Source: a virus
Lineage: Duplodnaviria; Caudoviricetes
Length of the DNA: 64,000 bases
Virus record (IMG/VR): IMGVR_UViG_3300037851_000542
Span: 1 to 64,000 of that record
Reading direction: 5' to 3' (one strand)
A model generated the notes under the pieces. That model was not told the DNA's origin. It made no database searches and saw only the letters and a program-made list of their open reading frames with translations. Of the stretch, positions 5,142 through 63,198 are shown in pieces. How positions within the stretch are numbered: the first letter of the stretch is position 1; each line of letters opens with the position of its first letter. Position numbers and translations under genes: made by a program.

Positions 5142-5283
5142 GTTTACCTGTTTGTTAAACTTTTAAATTTAAATCACTAAAAGTAGTATCGGTATTAAGT
5201 ATAAATAACTTTAACTATAAATGTACCATAGTGACTTTATTTCACGGAGGCTTTAAAATTTTTATAGGGTATACTAATAATCT

Positions 5284-5571
5284 TTAGATTAAATAAAGAA
5301 CATCTGTCCAGTAAAGGTTACACAGGTTAAAATCATCAAAGCTGAAACAAATAAAATTATCAGCTTGTAATTTGGATCGGTTATTAATAAAATAAGTTAA
5401 GTTACTTGACAAGTGAATAACTAAAGCGTCTTTAAAAGTACTGTGTGTTTTATAAAAGTTTACAGGTTCATTATTATCACAGCTTACAGATAAATAACCT
5501 CTATTTTCTTCTGAGTTAAACTTTTTACAGGGGCGCATTAAATAGCTGTATTTATTACCGTATTTATTCAT
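5284..5571 (-). CDS. small array protein with C-terminal tail
   Basis: YSYLMR...VLYLI*. Confidence 0.8.
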   Translation of the reverse strand: MNKYGNKYSYLMRPCKKFNSEENRGYLSVSCDNNEPVNFYKTHSTFKDALVIHLSSNLTYFINNRSKLQADNFICFSFDDFNLCNLYWTDVLYLI

Positions 5572-5579
5572 AAATAATC

Positions 5580-5858
5580 TTAGATTAAATAAAACACATC
5601 TTTATAGTGACCTAATGGTGGTTTATTACTAGTAGCATTATGTAGTCTAAAATGACTAACATGGTCACAATAAATATACTTAGCTTTGTTACTAATTAGC
5701 TCATTAATACTTATGACCTTAGTTGTATTTCTTCCTTGGGCGTCATCATTCTTATAATATCTTGGTATTCTTATCTTTTGCGATGAAGGGAGTAATTCTT
5801 TTACATAGAATGTTTTAATAGTAAAAGTAGTAATAAATAGGTAGTTATATTTAAGCAT
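5580..5858 (-). CDS. small array protein with C-terminal tail
   Basis: YNYLFI...YKDVFYLI*. Confidence 0.8.
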   Translation of the reverse strand: MLKYNYLFITTFTIKTFYVKELLPSSQKIRIPRYYKNDDAQGRNTTKVISINELISNKAKYIYCDHVSHFRLHNATSNKPPLGHYKDVFYLI

Positions 5859-5864
5859 ATTAAA

Positions 5865-6179
5865 TCATATCAGATAATATAATCTGTGGTAAGAATTTTC
5901 TGGTCCGCTGCCGCTAAATCTAAAATATTTAAAGGAATGGTGGTTATAATATTGAATTTTATTATTTAAAAACTCTTCGAAAGTTATTTCAAAATACTCA
6001 ACATAGGGGTAATTCTTTGTATAAATAAGAACAGTTTCTGGCGTTATTAAATCATCTTGATCAAACAAGTTATCTAATATTTTAAGCTTAGTGTACCAAC
6101 TGATATCCTTAAAAGGATCACTATCTTTTTTCCTATAAAATAATAAAAATCTTCCTTTATTGTAATCTATTTTTTTCAT
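5865..6179 (-). CDS. small array protein with C-terminal tail
   Basis: RFLLFY...LYYLI*. Confidence 0.8.
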   Translation of the reverse strand: MKKIDYNKGRFLLFYRKKDSDPFKDISWYTKLKILDNLFDQDDLITPETVLIYTKNYPYVEYFEITFEEFLNNKIQYYNHHSFKYFRFSGSGPENSYHRLYYLI

Positions 6180-6188
6180 AACTCTAAC

Positions 6189-6473
6189 CTAGATAAAGTA
6201 AAATATATTTTCATAGGTAGATAAAGGAGCAGTATGGGCACTATAGGTGCTTGGTTTTATTATAAAATACCTAAACATTGGTACATCTATCAAGCCGCTT
6301 TTATTTTTTAAAAAGTGGTCTATTTGAATTGGCTTCCTAAGGGTATCTATGGATGGAGAAGATGTATATACAATAATTTCTTCTTCGCCGGTTAAGTGTA
6401 GGATCTCTGGAATGTAAGTATTATAACCTGTGTACTCTACTCTAAATAATAAGTATTTACAACTAATAGGCAT
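6189..6473 (-). CDS. small array protein with C-terminal tail
   Basis: KYLLFR...YENIFYFI*. Confidence 0.8.
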   Translation of the reverse strand: MPISCKYLLFRVEYTGYNTYIPEILHLTGEEEIIVYTSSPSIDTLRKPIQIDHFLKNKSGLIDVPMFRYFIIKPSTYSAHTAPLSTYENIFYFI

Positions 6474-6475
6474 AG

Positions 6476-8116: not shown

Positions 8117-8368
8117 TTAAATAAAATAATAAAGCTTATGGTAAGCAATTACACTTTTATCTACACTCATTTCAAAATCGTCTTCTTGTGCAGATAGCCT
8201 ATTTAGAAACTTAAAAGCACCAGCTTTTTTTAGTGTGATAATATTGGAGACCCTGTGTTGGTCATCCAGATCCCAATATTTATAATAAATTGCTGTAGTT
8301 TTATTCAGGATGATAGCTCTAGGGTAGTCATTATTTTTTGCTAAATATTGCATTTTATTTTCACTCAT
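8117..8368 (-). CDS. small array protein with C-terminal tail
   Basis: MSENKMQYLAK...KLYYFI*; paralog of 7861. Confidence 0.8.
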   Translation of the reverse strand: MSENKMQYLAKNNDYPRAIILNKTTAIYYKYWDLDDQHRVSNIITLKKAGAFKFLNRLSAQEDDFEMSVDKSVIAYHKLYYFI

Positions 8369-8524
8369 ATCTAAGTGTCCCATAGTCAGTTAGATTAATG
8401 CTGCCCCGAATTTTTTTATACTAAACAATACCAGTCTATAATTGTATAAAAAGTGTTAGTGCTCTCTTCTAGAAATCTTACAACCACATTATCATCGGTA
8501 TAAAGTAAAAATAACTTTAGGTTT

Positions 8525-8830
8525 TTATACCCAGTATTTAGAAGTCCAATACACTATTTGTCTAAAACCCACACCACCTACTTCTAGTAAACCTAGTCTT
8601 AGACTTTGATCTTCAGACATTTCTTTGTTTATGTTATCAATACAAGATTCTAAATGTATTATGCTATTATACTGGTCCCAGCCCCAGCTTCTCTCTCTTA
8701 TTACTTTGAAAACCACAGTCCCATTAGTAAGGTCACTATAACTATATAGTAACCAGTGATCGCTTCCTTTAATTGTTTTACCTAGGTAATCGGTTTTAAA
8801 GCATTTAAATAAATATATTTTTTCACTCAT
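8525..8830 (-). CDS. small protein with tail-like end
   Basis: IYLFKC...SKYWV*; own sigma28-type promoter at 8867-8894. Confidence 0.75.
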   Translation of the reverse strand: MSEKIYLFKCFKTDYLGKTIKGSDHWLLYSYSDLTNGTVVFKVIRERSWGWDQYNSIIHLESCIDNINKEMSEDQSLRLGLLEVGGVGFRQIVYWTSKYWV

Positions 8831-9129
8831 AATATCCCTTTTAATTATATAACCTAATTAGATATGTATCGTCACTAATTAAAAATAACTTTAGTTAAAT
8901 AATTAGGAAGAGGACTAATCAAAGAGGATATGGGGAGATTTATAAGGATTGTCTCCTAGGTCAATTGGGGAATAGGGATTGCCGCCTAGGTTGATTCCAG
9001 TAATAAATACTGCCGCCTAGATAATGTCCCATAGTCATATAAGGTAATAACCCAGAATATAAAGTTCAGCCCCCAGTGATTGTTAAAAAATAACCGGATT
9101 CAATCCGGTTATAGGGGTGCTTTTAGGTA

Positions 9130-9959: not shown

Positions 9960-10163
9960 CTAGTTTTTCTTATGTTCTATTATCTCAGTTAATAATTTAT
10001 ATATTCCAGCTATAGCTGGGTTCTTGTTACCTTTAATAATAGACTTTAAACTATTATCTTTCATCTCGATTAGTGTATCAATTGATAATCCCATAAATAC
10101 ATGACAAGTAACATCATCATTCTGAACTAGGGAATCAAATATATTGCTCATAGTAATCACCAT
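9960..10163 (-). CDS. hypothetical cassette protein
   Basis: ORF between promoter 10283 and hairpin 9916. Confidence 0.7.
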   Translation of the reverse strand: MVITMSNIFDSLVQNDDVTCHVFMGLSIDTLIEMKDNSLKSIIKGNKNPAIAGIYKLLTEIIEHKKN

Positions 10164-11280
10164 TAGTTAATTAGATACTTTTATAAGTTCTTTTTTACAA
10201 GTTATTAGGATTAAAATACATATAAACAATTTAATAGCGATCATCTTATTCCTTTATTTGGTATCTTTCCTCTTATAGTAATTATCGGACTAATCAAGAA
10301 TACTCTTTAGGTTATTATTTAAAAATAGGTGATTCTCTTAGGTCACGCCATTATAAAAATAAGGTATAATCCTTTTACCTAAGTGTTTGAAAGTCTTACA
10401 TAATATAAACTTAATAGAATCAGCTATTTATAAGCTATTAATATACTTACATAAAATTAACCATATGAAATAATTCACTAAAATTAAGTATATGACATAC
10501 TTAAGGAAATCTAAGTAATTGATATAATTGAATAAATTTAACTATATAATATGTTTAAACAAAGTTAAGTATCTGATTTAATTAAGAAAAGTTAAGTACT
10601 CGATCTCAGGTAGAAACTATAACTTTCTTGTAGCTTTATATAAAGATAGCTTTAAATAAAGGCAAACGGTCAACCAAACCTAGCCTTTTTCAAGGCTAGG
10701 TTTTTATCATTATAAATTATTATATGTATTCTAGCTTTGTATTAGAAACTAAGAAATACCCCTAGGGGTATTTCTTAGTACCTCCTATTACAGTATAAAT
10801 AGATTCTTAGGAATCTTCTTATAGTGCCTACCATTCTTTTCTACAAATACTCTTATCTTATTCTCAGGAGCATTCTTTTTCATTATGAGTGTAGTTAATC
10901 CTAAACTCATGACAGCCCCGAATATTAATCCTACTAATACAGATAATACTTCTAACATTGTTCATTCTCCTGTGTTAATTCTTCTGTGGTTACTAATAGT
11001 CCTCTTGATTCTAATACTTTGTAATGGTCTTGGATGTCTTGTTCGGTGATCTCACCTAGTGATTCTGTATATAATCCTCCTAGTTCTTCTATTGAGGGTC
11101 TCATATTTTGGTACTCCTTTTTTTGCCTTATGTATATACTATCGGATCTAATCGTAGATTACTTTAGTTTTATTTTTCTCTCTAGGTAATTTTCTTAGGT
11201 GCCCCAAAATTAAATCAGCTTTATATAAAGCTAAGTATGTAAGCTAAGAGAATCCCCTAGGGGATTCTCTTAGTGTTATC

Positions 11281-11502
11281 TTATTCCCAATATAGCTTTC
11301 CTGATACAGCACCTTTTACTTTAGTTAAACCACAATCTTTCATAAATTGTTCTTTCTGTTTCCTTTCTATTGCTTTGATTGCTTTCTTTCTTAGTTCTTT
11401 ATACTCCTTTGGTTGGTCTAGTTCGGTTACTATGGTTCCAGTAGTATTGATTCGAATTGATCTTTCTTTGGTTTCTTTGTTTTGAAGTAGTGTATATTTC
11501 AT
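11281..11502 (-). CDS. hypothetical cassette protein
   Basis: promoter 11536, GGAG SD, terminator 11244. Confidence 0.8.
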   Translation of the reverse strand: MKYTLLQNKETKERSIRINTTGTIVTELDQPKEYKELRKKAIKAIERKQKEQFMKDCGLTKVKGAVSGKLYWE

Positions 11503-11590
11503 TTTAATTACTCCTATTTTTTGCCCATATAAGTATATCGGATGATATACTTATAAACTTTAGATTGAAATTACTACCTAGGAAATATTA

Positions 11591-11890
11591 CTAGTTTATC
11601 TCTTTGTTCTCTTGTCTTCCAAAGATAACAGTAGCACAATCAATAATCAAAGTAGGCTCTATATTGGTTACTACTGAAACGAATATAGCAGGCTCAAAAC
11701 ATCTCTTTTTAAGGGTATTAAGATGCTCTTGAGAATGTATAACCATATTACAGGTGATGTTATTGTTTACTTCGACTATTACACTTCCTAGTTCATCGTT
11801 TATGAATTTAGTTATCATTCCATATATAGGATAAGTTTTTCCTAGTTCTGGTTTTTCTACTTGCGGGTTTAGTTGTAATTGGTTGTTCAT
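11591..11890 (-). CDS. hypothetical cassette protein
   Basis: promoter 11931, AGGAG SD. Confidence 0.8.
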   Translation of the reverse strand: MNNQLQLNPQVEKPELGKTYPIYGMITKFINDELGSVIVEVNNNITCNMVIHSQEHLNTLKKRCFEPAIFVSVVTNIEPTLIIDCATVIFGRQENKEIN

Positions 11891-12107
11891 TGTAGCACTC
11901 CTAATATGGGTTTTTTCCTCTTAGTAATAGTATCGGATCTAATCAGATAAATCTTTATATTAAAATAGCTCTGTCTAGGTATTTTTCTTAGTTGCCCCGA
12001 AATAAAATCTGCTTTATGTAAAGCTAGGCAGTTGGCACGAAGATTGCATAGCTTTATATAAAGCTATCACATAATTAAGAGAATCCCCTAGAGGATTCTC
12101 TTACTCT

Positions 12108-12305
12108 TTAAAGTATTTGTAAACAGTATGTAGTTAGTGGTACTAGGTTTTTTTCTAAGTGTTCAGAGTAAAAATCAATCTTTAATTCTAGTTTAACTAA
12201 TAATTTTTCTTCCTGTTCTGTTAGTCTTCTGTGTAGCATTGCATTGCATAACTCAGTATGCTTATCTAGTGCTTTCTTTAGTTTTAGTTCCGTTTTAGTT
12301 AGCAT
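12108..12305 (-). CDS. hypothetical coiled-coil protein
   Basis: 65-aa ORF, AAGGA SD. Confidence 0.7.
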   Translation of the reverse strand: MLTKTELKLKKALDKHTELCNAMLHRRLTEQEEKLLVKLELKIDFYSEHLEKNLVPLTTYCLQIL

Positions 12306-12321
12306 CCTTTACCTTATGTTT

Positions 12322-12615
12322 TTATCCTATTATTACTACTCCGTTAACCTTATCACCTTTCTTTAATTGTTTAGCTTTACACTGCTCAACAAAATCTAAA
12401 GGAAAGTCAAACGGTACCGCTCCATAACTAGGTGACAAGTGCATAAAATACTTTGCATTACTGCCTTTACTATTTAATACTCCTTTTCCTGTAATTGGAT
12501 CAAATTGACCTATAGACTTGTCAGATTGGACCGTGATAGTCCTATCACCATCATTAAAAGGATATACACTAAATTCTTGTGGTTTTCTCATATTGCCTAG
12601 TTTTGCAGTGATCAT
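12322..12615 (-). CDS. hypothetical phage protein
   Basis: promoter 12649, GGAGG SD. Confidence 0.8.
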   Translation of the reverse strand: MITAKLGNMRKPQEFSVYPFNDGDRTITVQSDKSIGQFDPITGKGVLNSKGSNAKYFMHLSPSYGAVPFDFPLDFVEQCKAKQLKKGDKVNGVVIIG

Positions 12616-12783
12616 ATTACCTCCATTGTATCTTGCCTTATATAAGTATATCGGAGTACTTTTAATTTATCTTTAGGTTAAAGTAATATGTTTACGAGTT
12701 TTTCTTACTTGCCCCAGAATTAAATTAGCTTTATATAAAGCTATCGTACAAATAAGAGAATCCCCTAGAGGATTCTCTTATTT

Positions 12784-13014
12784 CTAATCAATTAGTGAAC
12801 CTAGACTCAACTCTAACTTTAGATTACGAAAATCCTCTAGTAGGTCATAACTAGCAGTGTAATAATGTCCTGTAAAAGATGCCTCTATTAGTCTACCGTT
12901 CACGATCTTATATATCGTCGTGTTCCTGCCAAAATCTTCAAAGACGATATTTACTTCGTGAACTTCGTTAAACATAACTCTATCCAGACCTAATTGATGT
13001 TCCGTGTATGTCAT
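12784..13014 (-). CDS. hypothetical cassette protein
   Basis: promoter 13058, AGGAG SD; shares TIYKIVNGRL-type motif with 15608. Confidence 0.8.
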   Translation of the reverse strand: MTYTEHQLGLDRVMFNEVHEVNIVFEDFGRNTTIYKIVNGRLIEASFTGHYYTASYDLLEDFRNLKLELSLGSLID

Positions 13015-13224
13015 GTCTTTACTCCTGTTGAAGGTTATTTTCTACTCTCATATACACTATCGACGCATAATTAAGAATCCTTTAGACCAATCTTAAGATG
13101 CTACGAAAAACTCGTAGGCTACCGAATCTTGCTTAGCTTTATATAAAGCTAATTTATATCACGTTAGCTTTATATAAAGCTAACCTCTGCTAATTTAATT
13201 TTGGCGCAATAATTGCATAGCTTT

Positions 13225-13515
13225 TTATTGGTATATACTAAGAATAATTAACCAAGGTATAACAGCTAGTGAAAAGTAAACAGTATTCAAACATATAAAT
13301 ATAACTTTGTAATGCTTACATAAAATAAATATGGATATGCCACATAATAAAGCAAACAATTTTCCTATAATTAAAGCGTTTATAACTCCATATTGAACCA
13401 TTAAATAGCTCAATAATGGATTACCCTCACCTTGTATAGAATGAGTACTAACACCAATATACGTTAGTACTCCATCTAGGATCTGTAATATTATAAAGGT
13501 TATTAGTAGGTTCAT
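13225..13515 (-). CDS. small membrane protein (DUF5658-like)
   Basis: ILQILDGVLTYIGV...GEGNPLL pattern, 3 hydrophobic segments. Confidence 0.65.
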   Translation of the reverse strand: MNLLITFIILQILDGVLTYIGVSTHSIQGEGNPLLSYLMVQYGVINALIIGKLFALLCGISIFILCKHYKVIFICLNTVYFSLAVIPWLIILSIYQ

Positions 13516-13520
13516 ATAGT

Positions 13521-13766
13521 TTAACAGGTTACTAATGCTACTGCTAGTTTATCATCATCTAGTAGTTTTATGTATATGCTGGAAAAATATGTTTCACTTA
13601 TTACGCCATCAAAAAAATCATCTTTGAGGTACATAGCGTCATCAATATCAAACCATCTACCTTTTAACTCAAATCCTTCTACTAAATCTTTTGATGGATC
13701 TTCCTCATTCGGTCTAAATTCTACATCAACAACCTTTACATAGTGGATAGTTTGTTCATTGCTCAT
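13521..13766 (-). CDS. hypothetical acidic protein
   Basis: promoter 13800. Confidence 0.75.
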   Translation of the reverse strand: MSNEQTIHYVKVVDVEFRPNEEDPSKDLVEGFELKGRWFDIDDAMYLKDDFFDGVISETYFSSIYIKLLDDDKLAVALVTC

Positions 13767-14200
13767 AAATGTTACCTATGTTTTTTTGCCTATAGTAGTT
13801 ATCGGAACGAATCAAAGAATACTTTACACTTAAATCTTATTTCTAGGTAATTTTCTTAGTTGCGCCGAAATGTCTTAGCTTTATATAAAGCTGGCACAAG
13901 ACTTGCTTAGCTTTATATAAAGCTAAGCCGTTGGCACGATTCTTGCATTATGCATAACCTGTGCCATAAGTGAATCTATTAGAGTCTGGTAGAATCTATC
14001 AAAGTCCTATAGCTTTATATAAAGTCTTGCGCACGCGCACGGACAACTTTATATAAAGGTAGCTTTATATAAAGGCAAACGTGTAACCAAACCTAGCTTT
14101 ATATTAATATAGCTTTATATTATTGCAAAAACCTTAACCAAACCTAGCTTTATATTAGAGTCTAAGAAATACCCCTAGGGGTATTTCTTAGTAGTTTACT

Positions 14201-15031
14201 TTAGTATACAAATCCTAAACTTTCAATATCTTTTCTGAATTCAGCCATTAGAGCAGGTAAACGATCAAGTAATAGTTTTGTTAATTCCTCTTTAGGTAAT
14301 GATAATTGTTCGTCGGTAGCATCCGGCCAAATTCCGGTATTTCTAGCCTTATCTAGTTCTCTTTCTTTTCCTTCACTGAAGGAAGTAGCTACTTTGATTA
14401 TTTCAAAATCATTTTTAACAAATTCATCCCAAATTAAAGGATTCTTAGAAGTATCACCATAAAAATCTAAAGCAAAAGGGCATTCATGCCATTTTGTTGT
14501 GTAACCTTCTGGCGATAACTTACTAGAAAAATTGCTAGGGTTATCTTTACCATAAGGAACTTCTACTAGCTTTATATTAGATAAGTATCCTCTATTTTCT
14601 TCAATCCATTTTATAAATGATTTGGAGTAGTTAGTAAATGGCACATTAAAGTTATTAAACTTAACAGCATATTCAAAGGATGATGGTTCACCTTTAGATC
14701 TTCCCCAACAATCCTTATCACCAGCCAAATAAACCGTATTATTAACATAATACATAGGCTGATCGGAACTACAGAGATGCCATTTGATTAAATGAGCATA
14801 TTCAGGAAAATGTTCTTGTATTTGATCGTGTATACATCCTCCTGAACCTTCACGCCATCTACCACGATCTAAGTATTCGGTTTCTCCTGTAATAGCAAAG
14901 GTATTGTGTTTATTATTGCATTCGTCATCATACCTAATTTTTACTCTGATTCTTTCTGTACCTTCATTGAATAGCTTCCAATCAGATTGAATAACTTGTT
15001 TCTTAGTTAATATGCTTTCTGGTAGTGACAT
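14201..15031 (-). CDS. conserved hypothetical phage protein (276 aa)
   Basis: long clean ORF, promoter 15075, terminator 14162. Confidence 0.85.
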   Translation of the reverse strand: MSLPESILTKKQVIQSDWKLFNEGTERIRVKIRYDDECNNKHNTFAITGETEYLDRGRWREGSGGCIHDQIQEHFPEYAHLIKWHLCSSDQPMYYVNNTVYLAGDKDCWGRSKGEPSSFEYAVKFNNFNVPFTNYSKSFIKWIEENRGYLSNIKLVEVPYGKDNPSNFSSKLSPEGYTTKWHECPFALDFYGDTSKNPLIWDEFVKNDFEIIKVATSFSEGKERELDKARNTGIWPDATDEQLSLPKEELTKLLLDRLPALMAEFRKDIESLGFVY

Positions 15032-15250
15032 CTTTTTATTCCTTATTAAAAGGTTTTTTTCCTCTTATATTAACTATCGGTATTATATTCAGAATGCTTT
15101 AGATTGATTTGTTCTTTCTAGGTATTTTTCCTACTTGCCCCGCATCAAACCTGCTTTATATAAAGCAGGTTTATGGTAACTGAGCTTTATATAAAGCTCA
15201 GTATATAAGCTAAAAGAATCCCCTAGGGGATTCTTTTAGTTTGTTAAAAT

Positions 15251-15535
15251 TTAATTTGCAGTAAAGGATCTACTTTCAGGAGTATTAATAACAATAGGAT
15301 CAAAGTCATGTAATTGTGTTTCTCCTGTTAATGATTGTATCTTACTTGCAAATAATCTGGATACTCTATGTTGATTAACCCATTCAGTACCTTTATTGTT
15401 TTCATTAGCTAATTGCCACAATCTTTCCGTAATAGCAGAAAAGGATCTTACTACACCACTAAGATTACAAGCATTCTGAACCTGTATTGCTTCATTTATT
15501 AGTTCACTTTCTGAATAATTAGTATATCGTGACAT
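15251..15535 (-). CDS. hypothetical cassette protein
   Basis: promoter 15574, GGAG SD, terminator 15210. Confidence 0.8.
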   Translation of the reverse strand: MSRYTNYSESELINEAIQVQNACNLSGVVRSFSAITERLWQLANENNKGTEWVNQHRVSRLFASKIQSLTGETQLHDFDPIVINTPESRSFTAN

Positions 15536-15607
15536 GTTATATTCTCCTATATAATTTTTCCTACTAAATAAACTATCGGCACAATTTAAAATAAACTTTA
15601 GGTTAAT

Positions 15608-15997
15608 TTATCGGTAAAGATTAGAATACTGTGAATCTTTTAATTTTGCTTTTAAGTCTTCTACTACATAACCAATATGACTAGTAAATTTTGCTGATAC
15701 TAGTCTATCATTTATTACCTCATAGATAAGAGTATGGGGAAACTTTTTACCAAAGGTAAGAAATACTCTTAAGTGTTTTTTGTTTGCCGTATAAAAATAA
15801 ATGTTATTATTGTGATCTGTATACTTCCATGTTTCATTGACTTTATGGTGTAAATTTATAATAGCGTTTAATGCTTTGATTCTAGATTGTGTTAATTTAC
15901 TTTCATTATTGGCTTCACTTTTTTTACAATCTTCTAAATGCTTTTCTAAGTCAGCCAATTTTTTAAATAGTCTTATTTCTTTAGTAGTAGTATTCAT
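15608..15997 (-). CDS. hypothetical cassette protein
   Basis: promoter 16032. Confidence 0.8.
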   Translation of the reverse strand: MNTTTKEIRLFKKLADLEKHLEDCKKSEANNESKLTQSRIKALNAIINLHHKVNETWKYTDHNNNIYFYTANKKHLRVFLTFGKKFPHTLIYEVINDRLVSAKFTSHIGYVVEDLKAKLKDSQYSNLYR

Positions 15998-16604
15998 ATG
16001 ATTACCTTCTATTTGTTTGCCTATAGTAGTCTATCGGTTCAATAAATAATAATCTTTAGTTTAAAATTAAAATCTAGGTAAATTTCTTAGTCCTTCTCGA
16101 ACAATGCCTAGCTTTATATAAAGCTAGGAAGCTGGCACGAATCTTGTTTGACTTTATCATAATAACATTGTATACTTATTTTGTTGGGGTGAATATACTC
16201 ACTTCGATCAGGACGGACGGGACTGTAGGACTTGCCCTTAGAAACCCCTATTTTCGGATAGCGGGAGTAGTCACATAAAGTGAGCTTTATATAAAGATGG
16301 CTTTATATAAGCGCCATATATAGCCATACCTTGCTTTATATAAAGTTGGCTTTACCTAATTGCAAAATAGACCACCAAACTTAGCTTTATATTAAAATCT
16401 ATTAGATACCCCTAGGGGTATCTAATAGATATGTTATTACTTTTTATCCTTTAACATACAAATTAAACCATTACCTACCCATATAGTTTTATAACCTAGT
16501 GATTTAGCTTTCATATAGTAACTAATATACCTGTTATTTATGATTATCTCATTCCTATTAGATGAATTTCTATATACTTTTTTCACTTTTATTACTCCTG
16601 TTTT

Positions 16605-17138
16605 TTACAATATACTTTCTCTAATGTCATAAAATACCATATCGGGTATAGGTCGATCTCTATTTGTTCTAGAACTAAATATGCTTAGTCCTAAATTACT
16701 ACATATTTCTATTCTATCCCGTTGATTTAAAACCTCGTACCAATATTTATTAATTTCGTTATATTCGGCTTCAGAAATGGCATCTTCATTATACAGTGGA
16801 TAATTCTCTAATGCGCCCAAAATTTCATATACTTTATTTAATACTACCTCACTTGTTTGCTTATGTACTAGTATGGTTTCTATCCAACCTACTGCCCAAT
16901 GATTAGCCTGTATTGATTGAATCATAGGTTCATTACTATCTAACATTGAAACTGTTTCTTCAGTTAGTTTTTCTAAATCCCTTAAGATGCATTCAAAGTT
17001 TACATTAGTATATAATTTGCTATCTCTATGCCTACCATATACCTCAATATAATCATAGAATGTAGGACCAAAGTAGGAATCTGGTAATTTCCAAAAGTTA
17101 TCTGATAGTGCTTCCAAGTTAGTGTTATGTCCTACCAT
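16605..17138 (-). CDS. conserved hypothetical phage protein
   Basis: HWAVGWIETILV motif; promoter 17180, GAGG SD. Confidence 0.8.
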   Translation of the reverse strand: MVGHNTNLEALSDNFWKLPDSYFGPTFYDYIEVYGRHRDSKLYTNVNFECILRDLEKLTEETVSMLDSNEPMIQSIQANHWAVGWIETILVHKQTSEVVLNKVYEILGALENYPLYNEDAISEAEYNEINKYWYEVLNQRDRIEICSNLGLSIFSSRTNRDRPIPDMVFYDIRESIL

Positions 17139-17380
17139 TTTTTATTACCTCTTATGTTTTGTTTTTCCCTATATATGTATATCGGATCTAATCGTAATAA
17201 TCTTTAGACTAGAATTATATTACTAGGTAATTTTCTTAGGTGCGCCAAAATAAAACTGGCTTTGTACAAAGCTTTGCAATCGGCGTGCCAGCTTCGTAGC
17301 TTTATATAAAGCTACGTTTATAAAAAAAGATGCCGGTGCAGAACCTCACCGGCTAGGTTTTTATAGAGTAGGAGTATTAA

Positions 17381-17629: not shown

Positions 17630-17693
17630 ATTTCTTACTCCTATGTTTTTCCCTATATATGTTTATCGGCGGTAATTGAATTAAACTTTAGAA

Positions 17694-19571: not shown

Positions 19572-19573
19572 TT

Positions 19574-22661: not shown

Positions 22662-22666
22662 ATTGT

Positions 22667-24351: not shown

Positions 24352-24375
24352 GTCATACTCCTTTATAAAATAAAA

Positions 24376-51024: not shown

Positions 51025-51108
51025 AATTAACTAAAGTTTTGTAGCATATTGACCGATAAGTAATAAGTAATAAGTAATAAGTAAACATTAACTTATATAA
51101 GGTAAAAT

Positions 51109-51882
51109 ATGATAATTAAAATAAAAATACTTCTATTAATTTTAGTAACTATTTGTACTACAGCAACTGCTCAAGAAGTTGTTCCGGAAACAATAGTAGT
51201 TAACATACATACCAAATACTTAAAGGAGGTGATATTTGCTTACGCTGATTACGATCCTAATGAAAGTGGTACCTTAAATAAAAGTTCTTCCATTCGTACC
51301 GTAGTTGTCACAAAAGATTCTAAAGTTTATTTCAGTGAGCCTTTTGATTCTGAAGATACAGAATTAACCAGATTTCTTGGAAACTGGATGAAGCCCTACT
51401 CTGGAGAGTATAGAATGGTTACAGATGGTTTTGGTAGAATTTTTGTTAAACCGTCTCTTTGGTGGTATGAGGATGATCAAGTAAAAGAGCACCAATTACT
51501 ATATGAGGATGAGTTTGGAAAGCAGTATAAACGTGTTAGTCCAAAAGATGCTCCAAGTTCATTAAAAAACTCTTGTAAGTGTATAGATATTACTCATCAA
51601 ATGTTTCACGCGCAAAAGCATAATTTAGAAATTGTGACTTATGATTTAGAAAATAATGATTGGGATAAATTAGTTAGAACTCTAGACCGAGAAGAACTTA
51701 GTCTTGCAACTGATGAAGTAAGATTACAAAAGTATATAGATAATGGTTACTCAGATACTAGCATTTTTTACCAAGTATTTCCAACTTTAATAACAGCCTT
51801 TTTACTGAGCTTTATCCCAGTAATTGTAATTGTACTTATCGTGATAATTCTCCTCTATCTTCGCGCTGCTACCTGGAGGTAA
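51109..51882 (+). CDS. exported protein with signal peptide and C-terminal TM anchor
   Basis: MIIKIKILLLILVTICTTATAQ; hydrophobic C-terminus; promoter 51031. Confidence 0.75.
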   Translation: MIIKIKILLLILVTICTTATAQEVVPETIVVNIHTKYLKEVIFAYADYDPNESGTLNKSSSIRTVVVTKDSKVYFSEPFDSEDTELTRFLGNWMKPYSGEYRMVTDGFGRIFVKPSLWWYEDDQVKEHQLLYEDEFGKQYKRVSPKDAPSSLKNSCKCIDITHQMFHAQKHNLEIVTYDLENNDWDKLVRTLDREELSLATDEVRLQKYIDNGYSDTSIFYQVFPTLITAFLLSFIPVIVIVLIVIILLYLRAATWR

Positions 51883-51963
51883 ATAACTAAAGTTTATTTT
51901 AATTTGCTCCGATATAATTAATTAGAAGAAGATTTGTTATAAACTTAAATAAGGATATATAAA

Positions 51964-52407
51964 ATGTCGCTTGAACATGTAAAAGACTACCTAGAAACTT
52001 TACCTCAAATTAAAGGAATTGAATTAGTACTTCATAGTTATGCTAGCATCTGCGATGCTTACGGCAATATCATTGTTGGAGCAAATGGTTATATTACTAG
52101 AAAAGACTATTTTTCTATCCACGAGCGTATGCAAATCTTAAAAGAGCTAGACCGACCGGAAGAAAAGATGAGAGTTAGTGAGTTTTTACTGGCTCATCCA
52201 GAGATATCACGTAGAGCAGACGATGAGTACTGTATAGCAGTAAAAGGCATCGCTACTATTTATGCTGTGGTGCGCCCAGAAGAGGAAGGAGATAAACCGG
52301 GACTCTGGTGGGGCTCTTCTTGGTGGGATGACTTGTCCCCTTCTGTTTTACGCCGTATAGCAGAAGCTAAAGAGTTATTAGAAGAAGGAGAGCTTGTACA
52401 TGGTTAA
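51964..52407 (+). CDS. hypothetical protein
   Basis: promoter 51887, AAGGA SD. Confidence 0.75.
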   Translation: MSLEHVKDYLETLPQIKGIELVLHSYASICDAYGNIIVGANGYITRKDYFSIHERMQILKELDRPEEKMRVSEFLLAHPEISRRADDEYCIAVKGIATIYAVVRPEEEGDKPGLWWGSSWWDDLSPSVLRRIAEAKELLEEGELVHG

Positions 52408-52780
52408 AGTTGAACCTGAAAAAAACAATACTGAACATTTAGATAGGAAAATTCAAGAAAGATTAGAACATTTAAAGTCTCTAGAAAAAGGTTGGTACTG
52501 GGATGGAGAAGGAGAGCCTGTATCTGAAATAGCAATTAATGAAGCTAATAAATTAATAAGTGCAAGACCAGACCTGAAATCGTATTACCGATTGTATCCT
52601 GTACCAGAGGGTGGCATTTCTATAGAGTTTGAAAAATCAAATTTATTAATATCAATTTATATTAATAATGATGGTATTGTTATAGCAGATCAAAGTGGTA
52701 TAGCTTCAGAAAGAGAATTTGAAGGTGAGTTTACTGGGGTTAATGCAGAGTTTTTAGCGTTATTTAATAAATATGTCTAA
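52394..52780 (+). CDS. hypothetical protein
   Basis: LEKGWYWDGEGEP...PVPEGGISIEF motif. Confidence 0.75.
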   Translation: MYMVKVEPEKNNTEHLDRKIQERLEHLKSLEKGWYWDGEGEPVSEIAINEANKLISARPDLKSYYRLYPVPEGGISIEFEKSNLLISIYINNDGIVIADQSGIASEREFEGEFTGVNAEFLALFNKYV

Positions 52781-52833
52781 AGTTATTCTCTATTAGCGCC
52801 GATATAAATAATATAAGATTTATGGAGTAATAA

Positions 52834-53169
52834 ATGAAATTGCCAGAACTTACCTGTCCAAAAATTGATTATATTGCAGAAGCTATTAAATCTAGTTTAA
52901 AAAATTGTGATAAAATTGAGTTTTATGAATCTTGGGCAGAAACTCCTGAGCAGTATTCAAAAGAAATACAAGAACTTAAAGATCGAGCCCGTGAAATTTC
53001 TTGGAAACTAAGTGATTTAGAAAGTACCTTAGAAGAAGTTAGGTCAGCTAATAAAGAATTAAGGGAAAAAGCTTTAGAGTATATGGATTTATATTTAGAA
53101 CTTTTTAAAGAAAAAAGTAAGGAAAAACAAGTAGCAGGAATAACTATTTATTGTTATGATAAGGATTAA
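52834..53169 (+). CDS. coiled-coil phage protein
   Basis: TCPKID...LEEVRSANKELRE; promoter 52777. Confidence 0.75.
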   Translation: MKLPELTCPKIDYIAEAIKSSLKNCDKIEFYESWAETPEQYSKEIQELKDRAREISWKLSDLESTLEEVRSANKELREKALEYMDLYLELFKEKSKEKQVAGITIYCYDKD

Positions 53170-57032: not shown

Positions 57033-57130
57033 TTTTCTTTTCCTATCTGTAAAAATATACCTAAAGTTTTATCTTAATTGTTCCGATAGAACATATGTGA
57101 TTAGAGTATATTAAAGCACAAGGGTAGAAT

Positions 57131-57487
57131 ATGCAAGTTAAAAACCAAGAAATTATTAAAAACTTAGTAACTTTATTAACAATCAGTGAAGAAATGTCTA
57201 ACTCTAAGGACAGTTCCTGTAAGTTTAATGCCTTTTTTTCTACGGTGCAATCAGAATTAGAAACTATTGGTAATCTCCTAGATCAAGTAAGAAATGACTA
57301 CATTGAACAAGTAAAGGACGGTACTATACAAAATGTATGCCAAAGTTTACTTGAAATATCAAATGTAAATTTAAATATAAATTACTCTCAGGAAAATGTT
57401 GCTTTATCGGATGAGTTTAATGTAAACTATAATACTGAAACAGTAGATTCAAGTTTATTCCTAACAGACCTGTCGGAACTAAATTAA
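57131..57487 (+). CDS. hypothetical protein
   Basis: promoter 57061. Confidence 0.75.
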   Translation: MQVKNQEIIKNLVTLLTISEEMSNSKDSSCKFNAFFSTVQSELETIGNLLDQVRNDYIEQVKDGTIQNVCQSLLEISNVNLNINYSQENVALSDEFNVNYNTETVDSSLFLTDLSELN

Positions 57488-60505: not shown

Positions 60506-61218
60506 CCCGATTTAATAACACAAAGTCTTTAACCTATAAAGAATTAGAATACTTATTACAGACTCAGAAATTCTTTAGGGTACTAAACGACAAGAATAAT
60601 AAGACCTATTTTTGTGAAGTAGAGGTAATTGATAATAATATTTGTTGCTTTAATACTGTTTCAAATAGGCTCATTTATAGGTTCCCCAAGGAGGAGCTGG
60701 GTATAAAGTATAAAATAATACCAGACTCTCATTATTTAAATTTTAAAAAAATACAATCTATAGGTGCAAAGGAGCTTACTGAGTTTTTACTAGGAGCAAA
60801 AAGAAAAGGTATTATTCACATCCCTGTAACAATTTATTTTGAGTGCAAGCCAAAGATTTATAACAAATGTGCTTTTCTAGACGTTACATATAGTAGCCTT
60901 ACTGATATAACAGAAGGGGACATTGAGTTAGGATACTTAAGTCCCGATATGACAACTAGACATAATTTAAAATTAGGAGATCTAGGGACAGCTTTTAAAT
61001 TACAAATACCTAAGGATTTTGTATTCTTTTCTACTCTGGCTAGCCGTAATAGTTTGAGAACCGTGAATACATTTTCCTCTGAGGAAAGCAGAAATATACT
61101 TAAGGTTATGTATGATTTAAAGTTCGGATTAAGAGGTTACGTACTAAGTAATATACACAGTGTAAAGTTACCATACTCCTCTAGTAACTATCCTGTAAAA
61201 TTTCTCTATCTGGTTTAG
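60502..61218 (+). CDS. hypothetical protein with tail
   Basis: ATGA-coupled to gmk; ends FLYLV*. Confidence 0.75.
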   Translation: MTRFNNTKSLTYKELEYLLQTQKFFRVLNDKNNKTYFCEVEVIDNNICCFNTVSNRLIYRFPKEELGIKYKIIPDSHYLNFKKIQSIGAKELTEFLLGAKRKGIIHIPVTIYFECKPKIYNKCAFLDVTYSSLTDITEGDIELGYLSPDMTTRHNLKLGDLGTAFKLQIPKDFVFFSTLASRNSLRTVNTFSSEESRNILKVMYDLKFGLRGYVLSNIHSVKLPYSSSNYPVKFLYLV

Positions 61219-61219
61219 A

Positions 61220-61552
61220 ATGCTTACCATAGATCAATTATATAACTACTGGGCGAAGTATCAACACACTACTTTTATAACTTTAAACAATGAAAATAGA
61301 CCTTACAAAGTAAGTTCTAACCCGCTTAGAGCGCCCTGGAAATTTAAATTAAAAGGGCATTGTATTTATATTGAAGAAAGATGTTTTGTTTTTAATAAAA
61401 TAAGGCACAATATGATAGGAAATGCCCTTATAATATTAGATCATAAAACTGAAACAGACTCTATAGAAACAGTGGTTATAAAACTGCCTAGGTTTTATAA
61501 CCAAGATGCTTTAATCACTGATCCTAGGATTAAAAAAATACATTTAATTTAA
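61220..61552 (+). CDS. hypothetical protein with tail
   Basis: ends KIHLI*. Confidence 0.7.
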   Translation: MLTIDQLYNYWAKYQHTTFITLNNENRPYKVSSNPLRAPWKFKLKGHCIYIEERCFVFNKIRHNMIGNALIILDHKTETDSIETVVIKLPRFYNQDALITDPRIKKIHLI

Positions 61553-61857
61553 AGCAAATTGTAACCATTAGGATAAAGAGAATTATACTGAGCAATAAAC
61601 TGACGCTCTTTAATTCTTACCTCTGATAAAGTTAAACCTTCTTCTAAAACTTCCATAACAAAAGATTCTTTTCCCAGAAGTCTTATGGCTGAATATAAAG
61701 GTTTATTATAATACTTATGGTGATGTGATCCATAAGCAATTGAAAAATGTGTTAATCTTCTTCTATTAGCATCATTAGTAATGCCTATATAAACTCTGTC
61801 TGGTTTATTTGTTGACCAGAGTTTGTATAGTAGATATTGTTTACCTTGACATTCCAA
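61549..61857 (-). CDS. GIY-YIG nuclease (single domain)
   Basis: YLLYKL...VYIGITND..RR..H...LYSAIR..G...F...VLE...ERQFI...N...GYN. Confidence 0.85.
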   Translation of the reverse strand: MECQGKQYLLYKLWSTNKPDRVYIGITNDANRRRLTHFSIAYGSHHHKYYNKPLYSAIRLLGKESFVMEVLEEGLTLSEVRIKERQFIAQYNSLYPNGYNLL

Positions 61858-61860
61858 TAG

Positions 61861-62307
61861 TTAGTTTTCTTTATTAAGTGTGCTTTTTAATTTCTTGTAC
61901 TCTGCAAGAGAATCTCTTTTCTTAATTTCTGGAGCGGCTTTAATTTCAACATTACTAGTCTGAACTTCAATATCAAAAATATCGTTTACTTTATTCAACT
62001 CAGAAAGTACACTTCTACTGACACTTAAGGTATTCACATTAGGTTCTTCCGTGAATTCAGGTGTATGAATAGGCTCATCAGAAAAGTATAGGTTTAGTTC
62101 AAAAATTAAAGCATCTTCTGAACTATCAAACCCGATAACTTTATAGCTTTCTATACCTATGTTTTTAGACCTTAATCCTGTGGGTAAGCTGGGCGTAACT
62201 TCTGAGACCAGAAACCGCCTAAAAACGGGGGTTTCTGGTATGAATACTTTTGAAATAGGCACTGTTATAGTTTTTTTCATTTTAAAAAATCCTGTGCTAG
62301 GTTCCAC
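61861..62307 (-). CDS. hypothetical protein
   Basis: start probably MKKT near 62280. Confidence 0.6.
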   Translation of the reverse strand: MEPSTGFFKMKKTITVPISKVFIPETPVFRRFLVSEVTPSLPTGLRSKNIGIESYKVIGFDSSEDALIFELNLYFSDEPIHTPEFTEEPNVNTLSVSRSVLSELNKVNDIFDIEVQTSNVEIKAAPEIKKRDSLAEYKKLKSTLNKEN

Positions 62308-63188
62308 ATATCTACATTAAAGTCTATAACAAAATTTATACCTGTTGGCGTTTTAGGTTTTCTGTATTTTGTCTCATTGTTTTTAACTGTGCCTACTTCA
62401 TAATGAGGTACTAGTAAGTTCTCATGTACCCTATTATACACTTTCCAAAGTCTGTTTCCTTCATCAGCTTCTCTATGTACTTTAAGTACATCTTTTACAT
62501 TTACTACTTTATCAAGAAATCTGAGTTTTATAGCTTTTTCAGCAAACTCTCTTGTTTCAGCACTAGTAAGTATTTTACTATACATTTTATTAATTTGCAA
62601 CTTTAACAGAGGCAAATGTTCAACTAATTCTTGCATAACTTTAGGAAGATACTCGGGTTGATCTGAGTAATGTTTCATTGACCATTTAAAAATACCCCCA
62701 GCAATTACATTATGCAAACTAACTGTTCTAAAAAATCCTAGTTGTAGTGTTTGCTTAGTGGTACCGTCGTGAGCACCTGTCTGAACTATTGTAAGCTTTC
62801 CTTCTCCTTCTAGGTCAAAGCTAGTAGATCCGTGATGATATGTTGCCCTGTATTTTTGAAACCCTACCCTGTGCTGGTTTCTTTTTTGGCGGCGCTGTTC
62901 TTGGTACTGTTGAATCTTCCATCCTCTTGTATTTAGATTTTCAATAACTGAGATATCGTCAGTTTTTCTAAACTTAGAAGTAGTACTTTGTGGATCTCTT
63001 TCAGTAATTATTATGGCGCTTTTTGGTAACAAAATTTCATTGTTTAAGAGGGCTTTAAGTTGTCTTTCAGACAATCTAGATTCTTTTTTTACTGGGACAG
63101 TTGCTATAGAAGGTTGCATAGAAGTTTCCAATATGTTAAAATTAAAAAGTAAAATATCTTCTATTAAGTATATCGACACCGAATACAA
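62277..63188 (-). CDS. DUF932/DUF945-like protein
   Basis: GWKIQ...AHDGTT...LQLGFFRTV...NRLWKVYNRVHENL; real start probably MQPSI about 63116; promoter at 63171-63198. Confidence 0.65.
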   Translation of the reverse strand: MYSVSIYLIEDILLFNFNILETSMQPSIATVPVKKESRLSERQLKALLNNEILLPKSAIIITERDPQSTTSKFRKTDDISVIENLNTRGWKIQQYQEQRRQKRNQHRVGFQKYRATYHHGSTSFDLEGEGKLTIVQTGAHDGTTKQTLQLGFFRTVSLHNVIAGGIFKWSMKHYSDQPEYLPKVMQELVEHLPLLKLQINKMYSKILTSAETREFAEKAIKLRFLDKVVNVKDVLKVHREADEGNRLWKVYNRVHENLLVPHYEVGTVKNNETKYRKPKTPTGINFVIDFNVDMWNLAQDFLK

Positions 63189-63198
63189 ATAACTTTAG
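63171..63198 (-). promoter_or_regulatory. sigma28-type promoter
   Basis: CTAAAG-N16-TCGATA. Confidence 0.7.

Follow-up and report, generated by a model that had tools for sequence, protein, structure and literature searches.

The stretch of DNA analysed here (the window; 64,000 nt, positions 1 to 64,000 of IMG/VR record IMGVR_UViG_3300037851_000542, Caudoviricetes) is part of the genome of a 260-kb freshwater jumbo phage and carries numerous small genes preceded by the motif CTAAAG-N16-CCGATA. A total of 27 exact matches are present in the window, compared to 0.03 expected from shuffles. With up to one mismatch allowed the number rises to 43 (0.31 expected by chance), of which 27 are minus-strand and 16 plus-strand copies, with outer limits at exactly 5187-63198. 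An earlier reading of the letters without database searches (the sequence-only reading) had arrived at the same total, but its split into 28 minus-strand and 15 plus-strand copies was not reproduced; the minus-strand total becomes 28 if a copy with two mismatches (23542-23569) is counted. The predicted promoters (28 nt each) are listed below together with selected genes. Sites called exact match the motif completely, all others carry one mismatch unless two are stated, and distances are those to the downstream ORF.

Minus arm
5187-5214 (−), TTAAAG-N16-CCGATA; ATG of the 76-aa ORF 4911-5141 45 nt downstream
8493-8520 (−), variant CCGATG; upstream of ORF 8117-8383
8867-8894 (−), GACGATA; 36 nt to ORF 8525-8830
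10283-10310 (−), exact; 119 nt to ORF 9960-10163
11140-11167 (−), exact; 35 nt to ORF 10952-11104
11536-11563 (−), exact; 33 nt to ORF 11281-11502
11931-11958 (−), ATAAAG; 40 nt to ORF 11591-11890
12649-12676 (−), exact; 33 nt to ORF 12322-12615
13058-13085 (−), GTCGATA; 43 nt to ORF 12784-13014
13800-13827 (−), GTAAAG; 33 nt to ORF 13521-13766
15075-15102 (−), exact; 43 nt to the 276-aa ORF 14201-15031
15574-15601 (−), exact, in full TAAAGTTT...GCCGATA; 38 nt to ORF 15251-15535
16032-16059 (−), exact; 34 nt to ORF 15608-15997
17180-17207 (−), exact; 41 nt to ORF 16605-17138
17664-17691 (−), exact; 34 nt to ORF 17381-17629
18132-18159 (−), GACGATA; 39 nt to ORF 17694-18092
18796-18823 (−), exact; 27 nt to ORF 18445-18768
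19244-19271 (−), GACGATA; no ORF of at least 30 aa within 250 nt
19810-19837 (−), exact; 35 nt to ORF 19574-19774
20463-20490 (−), exact; 37 nt to ORF 20186-20425
21396-21423 (−), exact; ORF 20638-21387, GTG of the longest ORF 8 nt past the -10 box
21969-21996 (−), exact; 28 nt to ORF 21452-21940
22981-23008 (−), exact; ORF 22667-22972, GTG 8 nt past the -10 box
23542-23569 (−), two mismatches, TTAAAG...GACGATA; 45 nt to ORF 23284-23496
24637-24664 (−), exact; 36 nt to ORF 24376-24600
25232-25259 (−), exact; 35 nt to ORF 24930-25196
27245-27272 (−), exact; innermost copy of this arm, at the divergence point

Plus arm and the site at 63171
28127-28154 (+), exact; first copy of this arm, 26 nt to ORF 28181-28366
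28394-28421 (+), variant CTCAAG; 31 nt to ORF 28453-28728
30698-30725 (+), GTCGATA; ankyrin-repeat genes 30793-32767
32774-32801 (+), exact; 43 nt to ORF 32845-33027
34697-34724 (+), variant CTTAAG, a B. bacteriovorus-type -35 box; 30 nt to ORF 34755-35087
35699-35726 (+), GTCGATA
38291-38318 (+), exact; 31 nt to ORF 38350-38568
38824-40449, TnpB (OrfB) gene
41992-42019 (+), variant CTCAAG; heads the same-strand ORF run 42057-43907, the last being the RF1 gene
42822-43907 (+), release factor 1 (RF1) gene with PCRF and RF-1 domains; a clue to the host lineage
44069-44096 (+), exact; RuvB-like AAA gene 44135-45247, whose ortholog in the relative G125 keeps the motif with N15
45446-45473 (+), variant CCAATA; 31 nt to ORF 45505-45864
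46168-46195 (+), TTAAAG; 28 nt to ORF 46224-46487
47217-47244 (+), exact, inside the 3′ end of ORF 47007-47267; RNA ligase gene 47287-48336
51031-51058 (+), exact; 50 nt to ORF 51109-51882
51887-51914 (+), exact; 49 nt to ORF 51964-52407
52777-52804 (+), exact; 29 nt to ORF 52834-53169
57061-57088 (+), exact; 42 nt to ORF 57131-57487
63171-63198 (−), GTCGATA; DUF932 gene 62277-63188, whose G125 ortholog keeps the motif with N15

The spacer is invariant, as had been noticed from the letters: a scan for TAAAG-Nx-CCGATA gave 31 matches for x = 16, whereas neither x = 15 nor x = 17 gave any. The whole genome contains 54 sites with up to one mismatch, 50 of which are intergenic and 51 co-oriented with the next gene, which bears out the described location at gene junctions facing downstream. 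The median distance from motif end to start codon at these 54 sites is 38 nt (27-50 nt is cited as promoter-like), and a Shine-Dalgarno sequence usually accompanies the start codons. The full consensus of the repeats is aaTtaA-n-CTAAAGTTt-N12-tGCCGATA. Within the motif conservation is limited to the two sigma-28 boxes, the spacer sequence being free, and an A/T-rich tract is conserved upstream.

The functional sigma-28 consensus TAAAGWWY-N11/12-RYCGAWRN, as quoted in PMC8762339 (citing Yu et al. 2006), is matched in its N12 form by the phage sequence TAAAGTTT...GCCGATA(A/T). The phage boxes also fit those of P. aeruginosa fliC, TCTAAAG (-36 to -30) and GCCGATAA (-15 to -8) (PMC12784957). The sequence-only reading had described the spacing as 1 bp longer than in E. 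coli; it is not unusual, since N16 equals the N12 variant of the consensus quoted there, it recurs in the B. bacteriovorus attack-phase consensus TTAAG-N16-CCGATA, which is based on 140 mapped start sites (PMC3627812), and G125 uses both spacings. Compared with class-3 flagellar promoters of E. coli, Chlamydia and P. aeruginosa, both boxes are identical with the consensus, down to the C that precedes TAAAG and the GC of the extended -10 box, and like FliA/SigD class-3 promoters the copies lie upstream of genes, with the N12 variant of the quoted spacing. Unlike these promoters they are phage-borne, reach about 50 copies in 88 kb and precede genes unrelated to motility; the longer spacing is used throughout, in contrast to the shorter one of P. 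aeruginosa fliC. Judged by consensus match, orientation and placement, the repeats represent flagellar-type (sigma-28, FliA/SigD) promoters, as first proposed.

The regulon is not phage-wide as had been assumed, since 49 of the 54 sites are confined to two divergent small-gene arms, which extend from 237 kb across the record ends to 65 kb and make up 34% of the genome, and another motif is used elsewhere. About fifty motif copies in the arms appear to head short transcription units of small, fast-turnover genes. Genes outside the arms (tail fibres; in relatives also the sigma gene) are preceded by a different motif, TATACTAT(A). No -35 partner of TATACTAT was found, and because of this the sigma-28-type is the sole two-box class seen. 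Sigma-70-type promoters, already described as scarce, are not enriched (184 weak matches compared to 231 in shuffles, only 20 of them intergenic), and no phage RNA polymerase gene was detected in the 260-kb genome. Thus, the sigma-28-type is the only abundant promoter class matching a known host holoenzyme. The IS607 element to which the sequence-only reading had assigned one sigma-70 promoter is not established, since no serine-recombinase TnpA was seen beside the TnpB gene.

About 38 motif copies are found in G125, in arms equivalent to those of this phage. The arms share 7 of 141 ORFs with G125, the core 54 of 178. Many G125 copies lie 7-8 nt before an ATG, which is the expected start of a sigma-28 transcript. 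Orthologous promoters have N16 in this phage and N15 in G125, and both spacings occur in G125. A scan of viral contigs revealed the same motif in unrelated contigs of 27-64% GC, in several of which both sigma-28 boxes coincide with a perfect sigma-70 promoter. The motif marks the borders of phage cassettes, joined in places by a repeated hairpin.

The RF1 gene has a GC3 of 0.44 compared to a phage median of 0.24 and is the top outlier among sizeable genes. It shows 83% nucleotide and 89% amino acid identity to the sole RF1 gene of the Bdellovibrionota MAG G001, which lies on a contig with the order groES-groEL-sua5-prfA. In the RF1 tree the phage and G001 genes together are sister to Bdellovibrionota MAGs plus three MAGs filed as Pseudomonadota (support 100/94). 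G001 encodes a true FliA (242 bits) and flagellins. By composition and phylogeny the phage captured its RF1 recently, and without subsequent amelioration, from a Bdellovibrionota lineage with flagella and FliA, and this single captured gene points to a flagellated, Bdellovibrio-like member of the Bdellovibrionota as the probable host. The GC content is about 47% for the probable host and 33% for the phage. G001 carries intergenic T[AT]AAG-N16-CCGATA sites, for instance ahead of a gene for a PilB-type ATPase and of an ORF whose match to the flagellin domain is sub-threshold. Exact T[AT]AAG-Nx-CCGATA matches in five Bdellovibrionota MAGs numbered 43 with N16 and 21 with N15, compared to 10 and 20 in six control genomes (Fisher p = 0.003). 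Enrichment of the exact motif in Bdellovibrionota genomes is weak (about 3 per genome versus an estimated ~1 for a reversed-pattern control), and no clean motif copy was seen in front of the flagellin genes of G001 and of four further MAGs.

Karunker et al. (2013, PMC3627812) proposed FliA as global regulator of the free-swimming attack phase in B. bacteriovorus. This regulon is large, mostly non-flagellar and sigma-28-driven, it shares the 16-nt spacing and the -10 box with the phage, and the probable phage host belongs to the same phylum. The -35 boxes differ (CTAAAG in the phage, TTAAG in B. bacteriovorus; CTTAAG occurs once in the phage, at 34697), as do the hosts, and individual native promoters of B. 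bacteriovorus vary in spacing, five native "FliA" promoters having spacings equivalent to N14 to N16 (PMC12622784, supplement). Since a FliA-run free-swimming stage is reported in the Bdellovibrio-like host group, the phage most likely borrows the host motility sigma. We assign a probability of roughly 0.58 to the reading that the host FliA holoenzyme recognises the CTAAAG-N16-CCGATA promoters. The weak motif enrichment in Bdellovibrionota, the lack of clean flagellin copies and the native N14 to N16 spacings count against it, and so do the GC difference between probable host and phage and the thin basis that one captured gene offers for a host assignment.

Of the two alternatives raised earlier, host FliA or a phage-encoded sigma28-like factor, both are live, but the label sigma28-like does not hold for the phage protein. 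The search for a sigma70-family gene yielded one full-length sigma (genome 78288-79259, 323 aa), which scores 17-19 bits against a FliA_WhiG cut-off of 189.6 and has its best matches in SigA/RpoD region 2. The main rival reading, possible though unlikely, is that this sigma reads the motif, whose sigma-28 likeness would be convergent. Host sigma-70 would then transcribe the sigma gene first, from a TTGnnn-N17-TATACT-type promoter, and the host core would be redirected to the ~50 accessory promoters as a middle class, as with SPO1 gp28. Domains sigma2, sigma3 and sigma4 are found in the full-length sigma of the phage and of every relative examined, and the modelled fold (AF2, pLDDT 84; ~300 columns aligning with sigmaS, SigA and sigma-28 chains) would suit a two-box promoter with -35 and extended -10 elements, which also speaks against host FliA. 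Of the 41 family members many lie on 100-255 kb contigs, with one copy per phage; sigma and motif co-occur in this phage and in G125, the two relatives that are complete enough, and their sigmas share K-N-x-[IV]-T-[ED]-I-I-K in the recognition helix. As the two sigmas are 44% identical, the N16/N15 difference could track them as well as two hosts. In four relatives the sigma gene has its own promoter of a different, sigma70-like type, which favours this alternative; the TATACTAT-containing promoter heading the sigma gene in the close relatives L244 and L245 is compatible with both models. Some sigma-like protein is also encoded by each of the five longest motif-rich viral records that are unrelated to this phage, but these proteins are of unrelated types (RpoD-like, or small region-2-only proteins) and yet the motif is identical. 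At the base-reading positions of FliA (PMC12784957), Q228 (sigma4.2) is replaced by E or D in the phage sigmas and R80 by K in this phage and by N in G125, although both phages retain the CGA core. Convergence on about 14 host-consensus positions would be a large coincidence, and unaided host polymerase would be left without an abundant promoter class.

A mixed reading, in which FliA and the phage sigma share the promoters but act at different times or another host sigma is retargeted to them by a phage protein (cf. T4 AsiA/MotA and sigma-70), is rather improbable; composite sigma-70/sigma-28-type promoters in other phage contigs show that one promoter region can have such a dual use, and G125 tolerates both N15 and N16. 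It is very improbable that recombination or mobility at cassette boundaries is the main role of the motif (cf. T4 hyperplastic promoter-stem-loop repeats), or that it is the operator of a phage regulator, with promoter likeness secondary. The hyperplastic arms with few ORFs in common with G125, the cassette-bounding motif and hairpin, and the operator-like overlap with perfect sigma-70 promoters are in favour of such a role. Nevertheless, conservation confined to two boxes around a free spacer, strict orientation, the 27-50 nt to start codons and the G125 ATG 7-8 nt past the -10 box are promoter properties, and recombination would supplement promoter function rather than replace it.

In the cascades of SPO1 (gp28 and gp33/34), T4 (gp55) and phiEco32 (gp36) early promoters are of the sigma-70 type, and the motif read by the phage sigmas is not known to resemble any host consensus. 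The present phage resembles them in relying on host core polymerase, in encoding its own sigma70-family factor and in having two or more promoter classes that occupy different parts of the genome. In contrast to them, the abundant class in front of its accessory genes copies the consensus of a host alternative sigma, and there is no enrichment of sigma-70-type promoters.

According to the preferred host-FliA reading, host core RNA polymerase with host FliA would recognise the motif promoters upon DNA entry, and these would constitute an early or host-takeover programme. The single, non-FliA-like phage sigma would be started from a weak sigma70-like promoter (TTGnnn-N17 followed by TATACT, TATAAT or TAATAT) and would then read TATACTAT(A), heading tail-fibre and other core genes. 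As FliA is the proposed attack-phase sigma of B. bacteriovorus, a phage meeting a swimming host would find sigma-28 holoenzyme abundant. If this holds true, the host motility sigma would launch infection through about fifty small, fast-changing phage genes.

Within the window the motif CTAAAG-N16-CCGATA was found 27 times as an exact match against 0.03 copies expected, and 43 times with at most one mismatch (minus strand 27, plus strand 16; 0.31 expected), the latter extending exactly from 5187 to 63198. The pattern TAAAG-Nx-CCGATA gave 31 matches in the window for x = 16 and none for x = 15 or x = 17. Thus the roughly 43 copies with an invariant 16-nt spacer claimed by the sequence-only reading are indeed present. 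The window covers the initial 64 kb of an IMG/VR virus record (259,994 bp, 33% GC, estimated completeness 95%); when one mismatch was tolerated, the whole record gave 54 sites, 50 of them intergenic and 51 co-oriented with the next gene. The end of CCGATA is separated from the start codon by a median of 38 nt over these 54 sites, usually with a Shine-Dalgarno sequence at the start. Judged from the sequence, the motif behaves as a promoter with a predicted transcription start about 7–8 nt after the −10 box. The regulon had also been described as phage-wide, but 49 of the 54 sites fall within 34% of the genome, from 237 kb via the record ends to 65 kb. With one exception, the minus-strand sites in the window are found left of 27.3 kb, and every plus-strand site is right of 28.1 kb; the sites thus form two arms with a common point of divergence.

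A logo built from 49 sites gives the consensus aaTtaA-n-CTAAAGTTt...tGCCGATA; the upstream tract is A/T-rich, and the spacer sequence is free. The T, A, A, A and G of the −35 box and likewise the CGATA core of the −10 box were set by the search pattern. Outside these fixed positions, C precedes TAAAG in 43/49 sites and TT(t) follows it in most of them, in keeping with the −35 box TAAAG(WWY) of the sigma-28 class. C stands before CGATA in 40/49 and G ahead of this C in 31/49 sites, matching the −10 box RYCGAWRN (GCCGATAA) with its extended −10 GC. PMC8762339 cites Yu et al. 2006 for the functional sigma-28 consensus TAAAGWWY-N11/12-RYCGAWRN, and the phage sequence TAAAGTTT-N12-GCCGATA(A/T) is its N12 form. 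All phage copies have this form, which equals TAAAG-N16-CCGATA. The boxes of Pseudomonas aeruginosa fliC, TCTAAAG (−36 to −30) and GCCGATAA (−15 to −8), represent the N11 form; according to the same paper, sigma-28 promoters conserve neither the length nor the sequence of their spacer (PMC12784957). For Bdellovibrio bacteriovorus, 140 mapped attack-phase starts gave TTAAG-N16-CCGATA in 92 promoters (PMC3627812), which is the same N16 spacing as in the phage. An unusual spacing of the phage motif, earlier described as 1 bp longer than the E. coli consensus, is not supported, since N16 is both the published N12 form and the B. bacteriovorus spacing. Five native B. bacteriovorus ‘FliA’ promoters are heterogeneous in boxes and spacings and thus speak neither for nor against N16 (PMC12622784, supplement).

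The arms consist of very small ORFs and a few recognisable genes, encoding ankyrin-repeat proteins, RF1, a RuvB-like ATPase, an RNA ligase, a helicase, DUF932 and TnpB. On the minus strand of window 1-5141 about 25 ORFs of 60–110 aa are tightly packed without an internal motif copy, and this run appears to be one long operon fed by the promoter at 5187-5214. Many promoters of the minus arm (window 10283-25259) share the element TA(T/A)A(G)GG(C/A)AAA about 8–12 nt after the −10 box, which from its position would be a conserved beginning of the transcribed leader, separate from the Shine-Dalgarno sequence further down. A small family of perfect hairpins, probably terminators or recombination hot spots, lies between the minus-arm cassettes:

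Window 9924, 11250, 15216, 19938 and 20607: perfect hairpin (A)AGAGAATCCCCTAGGGGATTCTCT(T)

Elsewhere in the genome (216019-218796) the gene for the large subunit of ribonucleotide reductase is split by an intein with a LAGLIDADG domain.

Promoters of the sigma-70 type are not enriched: TTGACA-N16-18-TATAAT with at most two mismatches gave 184 matches, 20 of them intergenic, versus 231 in shuffled sequences. The window's only consensus-grade sigma-70 promoter, TTGACA-N17-TACTAT at 38726, precedes a TnpB gene. It corresponds to the clear sigma-70 promoter noticed earlier at this element; assigning the element to IS607 is not justified, as no TnpA was seen beside TnpB. The two TnpB genes, both with raised GC3, are:

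Window 38824-40449: TnpB (OrfB_IS605 / Cas12f-like TNB), GC3 0.38, with a long N-terminal extension
Genome 239176-240312: second TnpB (OrfB_IS605 / Cas12f-like TNB), GC3 0.42, no TnpA seen

A protein search of 124 Bdellovibrionota genomes with the query used matched neither of them.

The phage encodes a possible reader of its own. As had been proposed, a sigma70-family gene is present (genome 78288-79259, 323 aa), but its likeness to sigma-28 did not hold up: the protein scored 17.1 and 19.1 bits with the FliA_WhiG model (TIGR02479) versus a cut-off of 189.6. Pfam regions 2 (E = 3e-4) and 4 (E = 0.017) were both matched under their gathering scores; TIGR02937 gave E = 1.6e-9, and the best PDB sequence matches were SigA chains (E = 3e-5). 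About 300 columns of an AF2 model (pLDDT 84) align with sigmaS, SigA, sigma-28 and sigma-32 chains, and Foldseek matched all sigma groups about equally and gave no group assignment. Because the model aligns alike with all groups, the protein is predicted to be a complete sigma2-sigma3-sigma4 factor without a group signature. In FliA, R80 (sigma2.4) reads −12G and Q228 (sigma4.2) reads the −35 T (PMC12784957). When conserved blocks were aligned by hand, the R80 position was occupied by K in the phage sigma and by N in its counterpart from the related phage G125, and the Q228 position by E or D in the phage sigmas, so that the base-reading residues of FliA are lacking. The gene is present in one copy per phage and has 40 homologues (43–68% identity), many on 100–255-kb contigs. 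In this phage and in three relatives (L243-L245) it is preceded by TTGnnn-N17-TATACT, TATAAT or TAATAT, and the sigma-28-type motif is absent from this upstream region. A Pfam-level search for a phage RNA polymerase (T7-like, beta, beta′) detected none; its T7-like model matched none of the control genomes, and the search could overlook phiKZ-type subunits that are very divergent.

The other 170 kb of the genome carry a different intergenic motif, TATACTAT(A), with 22 of 36 copies intergenic. It precedes, among others, the tail-fibre-like genes at 68682 and 75483, and in two of the relatives, L244 and L245, the promoter of the sigma gene is embedded in TATACTATATAAT:

Genome 68-250 kb, e.g. 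68630, 72642, 142512, 147488, 180834, 225267 and 239123: copies of TATACTAT(A)
L244 at 1794 and L245 at 9936: TATACTAT ahead of the phage sigma gene, as TTGnnA-N17-TATACTATATAAT

A −35 partner for the TATACT / TATACTAT motif was sought in the phage and not found. In G125, TATACTAT occurs 29 times versus 17 in the control. A phage-sigma promoter class of the SPO1 or T4 type differs from every host holoenzyme consensus, and the sigma-28-type motif does not. By its sequence TATACTAT(A) would be the better fit to a phage-sigma-specific class, and it is a candidate late promoter class read by the phage sigma.

A pointer to the host came from the RF1 gene (window 42822-43907), which is the strongest GC3 outlier among the sizeable phage genes (GC 46%, GC3 44% versus a phage median GC3 of 24%). 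Searched against 185,579 species genomes, it has its best match, with 89% amino acid and 83% nucleotide identity, in a Lake Mendota Bdellovibrionota MAG (G001). The matching gene is the only RF1 gene (prfA) of that MAG and lies on a contig with groES, groEL and sua5, a bacterial chromosome context. Next come, at 56–63% identity, other Bdellovibrionota MAGs and three that are filed under Pseudomonadota. A tree of 81 sequences places the phage and G001 genes together as sister to a clade of five of those MAGs plus the sequence L121 (support 100/94), with the sequence L127 just outside that sister clade. The phage RF1 has the appearance of a gene captured recently from the host lineage and not yet ameliorated. 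The ORF maps gave no sign of stop-codon recoding.

G001 encodes a bona fide FliA (242 bits, cut-off 189.6) and several flagellins. Exact T[AT]AAG-Nx-CCGATA, counted in five such MAGs, peaks at N16, with 43 of 104 matches over five spacings and 21 at N15; six control genomes belonging to other phyla gave 10 at N16 and 20 at N15 (Fisher p = 0.003). The N16 matches of G001 are mostly intergenic and commonly read CCGATAC; one lies upstream of a PilB-type ATPase gene and another upstream of a long ORF with a sub-threshold flagellin-domain match only. The flagellin upstream regions of G001 and four other Bdellovibrionota MAGs have long leaders and showed no clean sigma-28 box within 130–260 nt. Altogether, the motif and spacing signals in these MAGs are modest. 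Exact TAAAG-N16-CCGATA occurs about three times per genome in 124 Bdellovibrionota genomes, about 2.5-fold a reversed-pattern control (estimated by eye); picking a host by such counts was dropped because the phylum enrichment is too weak. We hypothesize, from the sequence comparisons, a Bdellovibrionota host for this uncultured jumbo-phage family. To our knowledge no large tailed phage of Bdellovibrionota has been characterised genomically.

A near-identity search with 8 kb against GenBank phages gave no match, and single-protein scans of viral contigs (sigma, RuvB-like protein) revealed no relatives. An alignment-based scan of viral contigs yielded one, G125, a 153-kb IMG/VR contig (34% GC) with a sigma 44% identical to that of the phage. 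Its first 53 kb hold about 38 motif copies, again in divergent arms, with N15 in 27 and N16 in 11. Only 7 of 141 arm ORFs of our phage have a homologue in G125, versus 54 of 178 core ORFs; therefore, the arms are hyperplastic while the promoter is conserved. Both phages have kept the motif ahead of their orthologous genes for the RuvB-like protein and DUF932, the spacer being N16 in our phage and N15 in G125. Many G125 copies have an ATG 7–8 nt after CGATA, the expected sigma-28 start point, without a Shine-Dalgarno sequence, which would imply leaderless mRNAs:

G125 (loci L235-L237), e.g. 11227, 13746, 14933, 30139, 33093, 38403 and 49531: leaderless-type sites

An identical promoter-plus-gene start is found three times in G125 (13746, 53225, 153176).

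A scan of IMG/VR with CTAAAGTT-N13-GCCGATA matched more than 117 contigs. Several are unrelated (GC 27% to 64%) and have the motif, with its spacing unchanged, 3–6 times in a stretch of about 10 kb. In many unrelated contigs a perfect sigma-70 promoter is interleaved with the boxes, CTAAAG-N9-TTGACA-N3-GCCGATA-N7/8-TATAAT, or in a variant with the sigma-70 boxes moved about 8 nt upstream:

L084, L089, L112/L074, L114, L075, L013 and L029, also L086 and L071/L111 (loci on IMG/VR contigs): composite promoters

From their sequence these may be dual-sigma promoters. A region-2-bearing protein is encoded in each of the five longest motif-rich records, but the types are unrelated: some are RpoD-like, others small and divergent.

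We consider host FliA the probable reader of the CTAAAG-N16-CCGATA promoters (probability about 0.58). FliA is favoured because about 14 positions of the motif agree with a bacterial holoenzyme consensus, because FliA is present in the probable host lineage, which also seems to prefer this spacing, and because FliA has been proposed as the dominant factor in the free-living stage of the phylum's model species. The phage sigma is in our judgement rather unlikely to read these promoters instead, but it is a strong rival: its build would allow it to read a two-box promoter, it is found together with the motif, and this phage and G125 differ in the spacer. It lacks the signature residues of FliA, which favours the host factor, as does the lack of another abundant promoter class for the unaided host polymerase. 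Phage DNA was found in two public sequencing runs, both freshwater metagenomes and probably the origin of the record, and no RNA run was listed.

Textbook phages either carry a polymerase of their own or use sigma-70 promoters to begin infection. We infer that TATACTAT is read by the phage sigma, that the arms are early and that the host is predatory. In a tentative scenario, to which we give somewhat less than even odds, the phage would infect a Bdellovibrio-like, possibly predatory host and would launch only in swimming cells: host FliA, the proposed master sigma of the free-swimming attack phase, would drive about 50 early/accessory promoters, and transcription would later be turned over by the phage sigma to late promoters of the TATACTAT type. 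As part of the same scenario, sigma-28-type early promoters, alone or fused to sigma-70 promoters, would be a common, undescribed strategy of environmental phages.

The composite promoters in other viral contigs suggest that the theme is widespread. A data set on spacer tolerance is provided by the roughly 50 natural sigma-28-type promoters, whose N12 is fixed, together with a sister phage mostly using N11, and a concrete host hypothesis is now given for this phage family. The largest promoter class of the phage copies the consensus of a motility-linked alternative sigma factor, a strategy for which a limited literature search gave no earlier description, and such promoters would couple phage expression to the state of the host, that is swimming and the attack phase.
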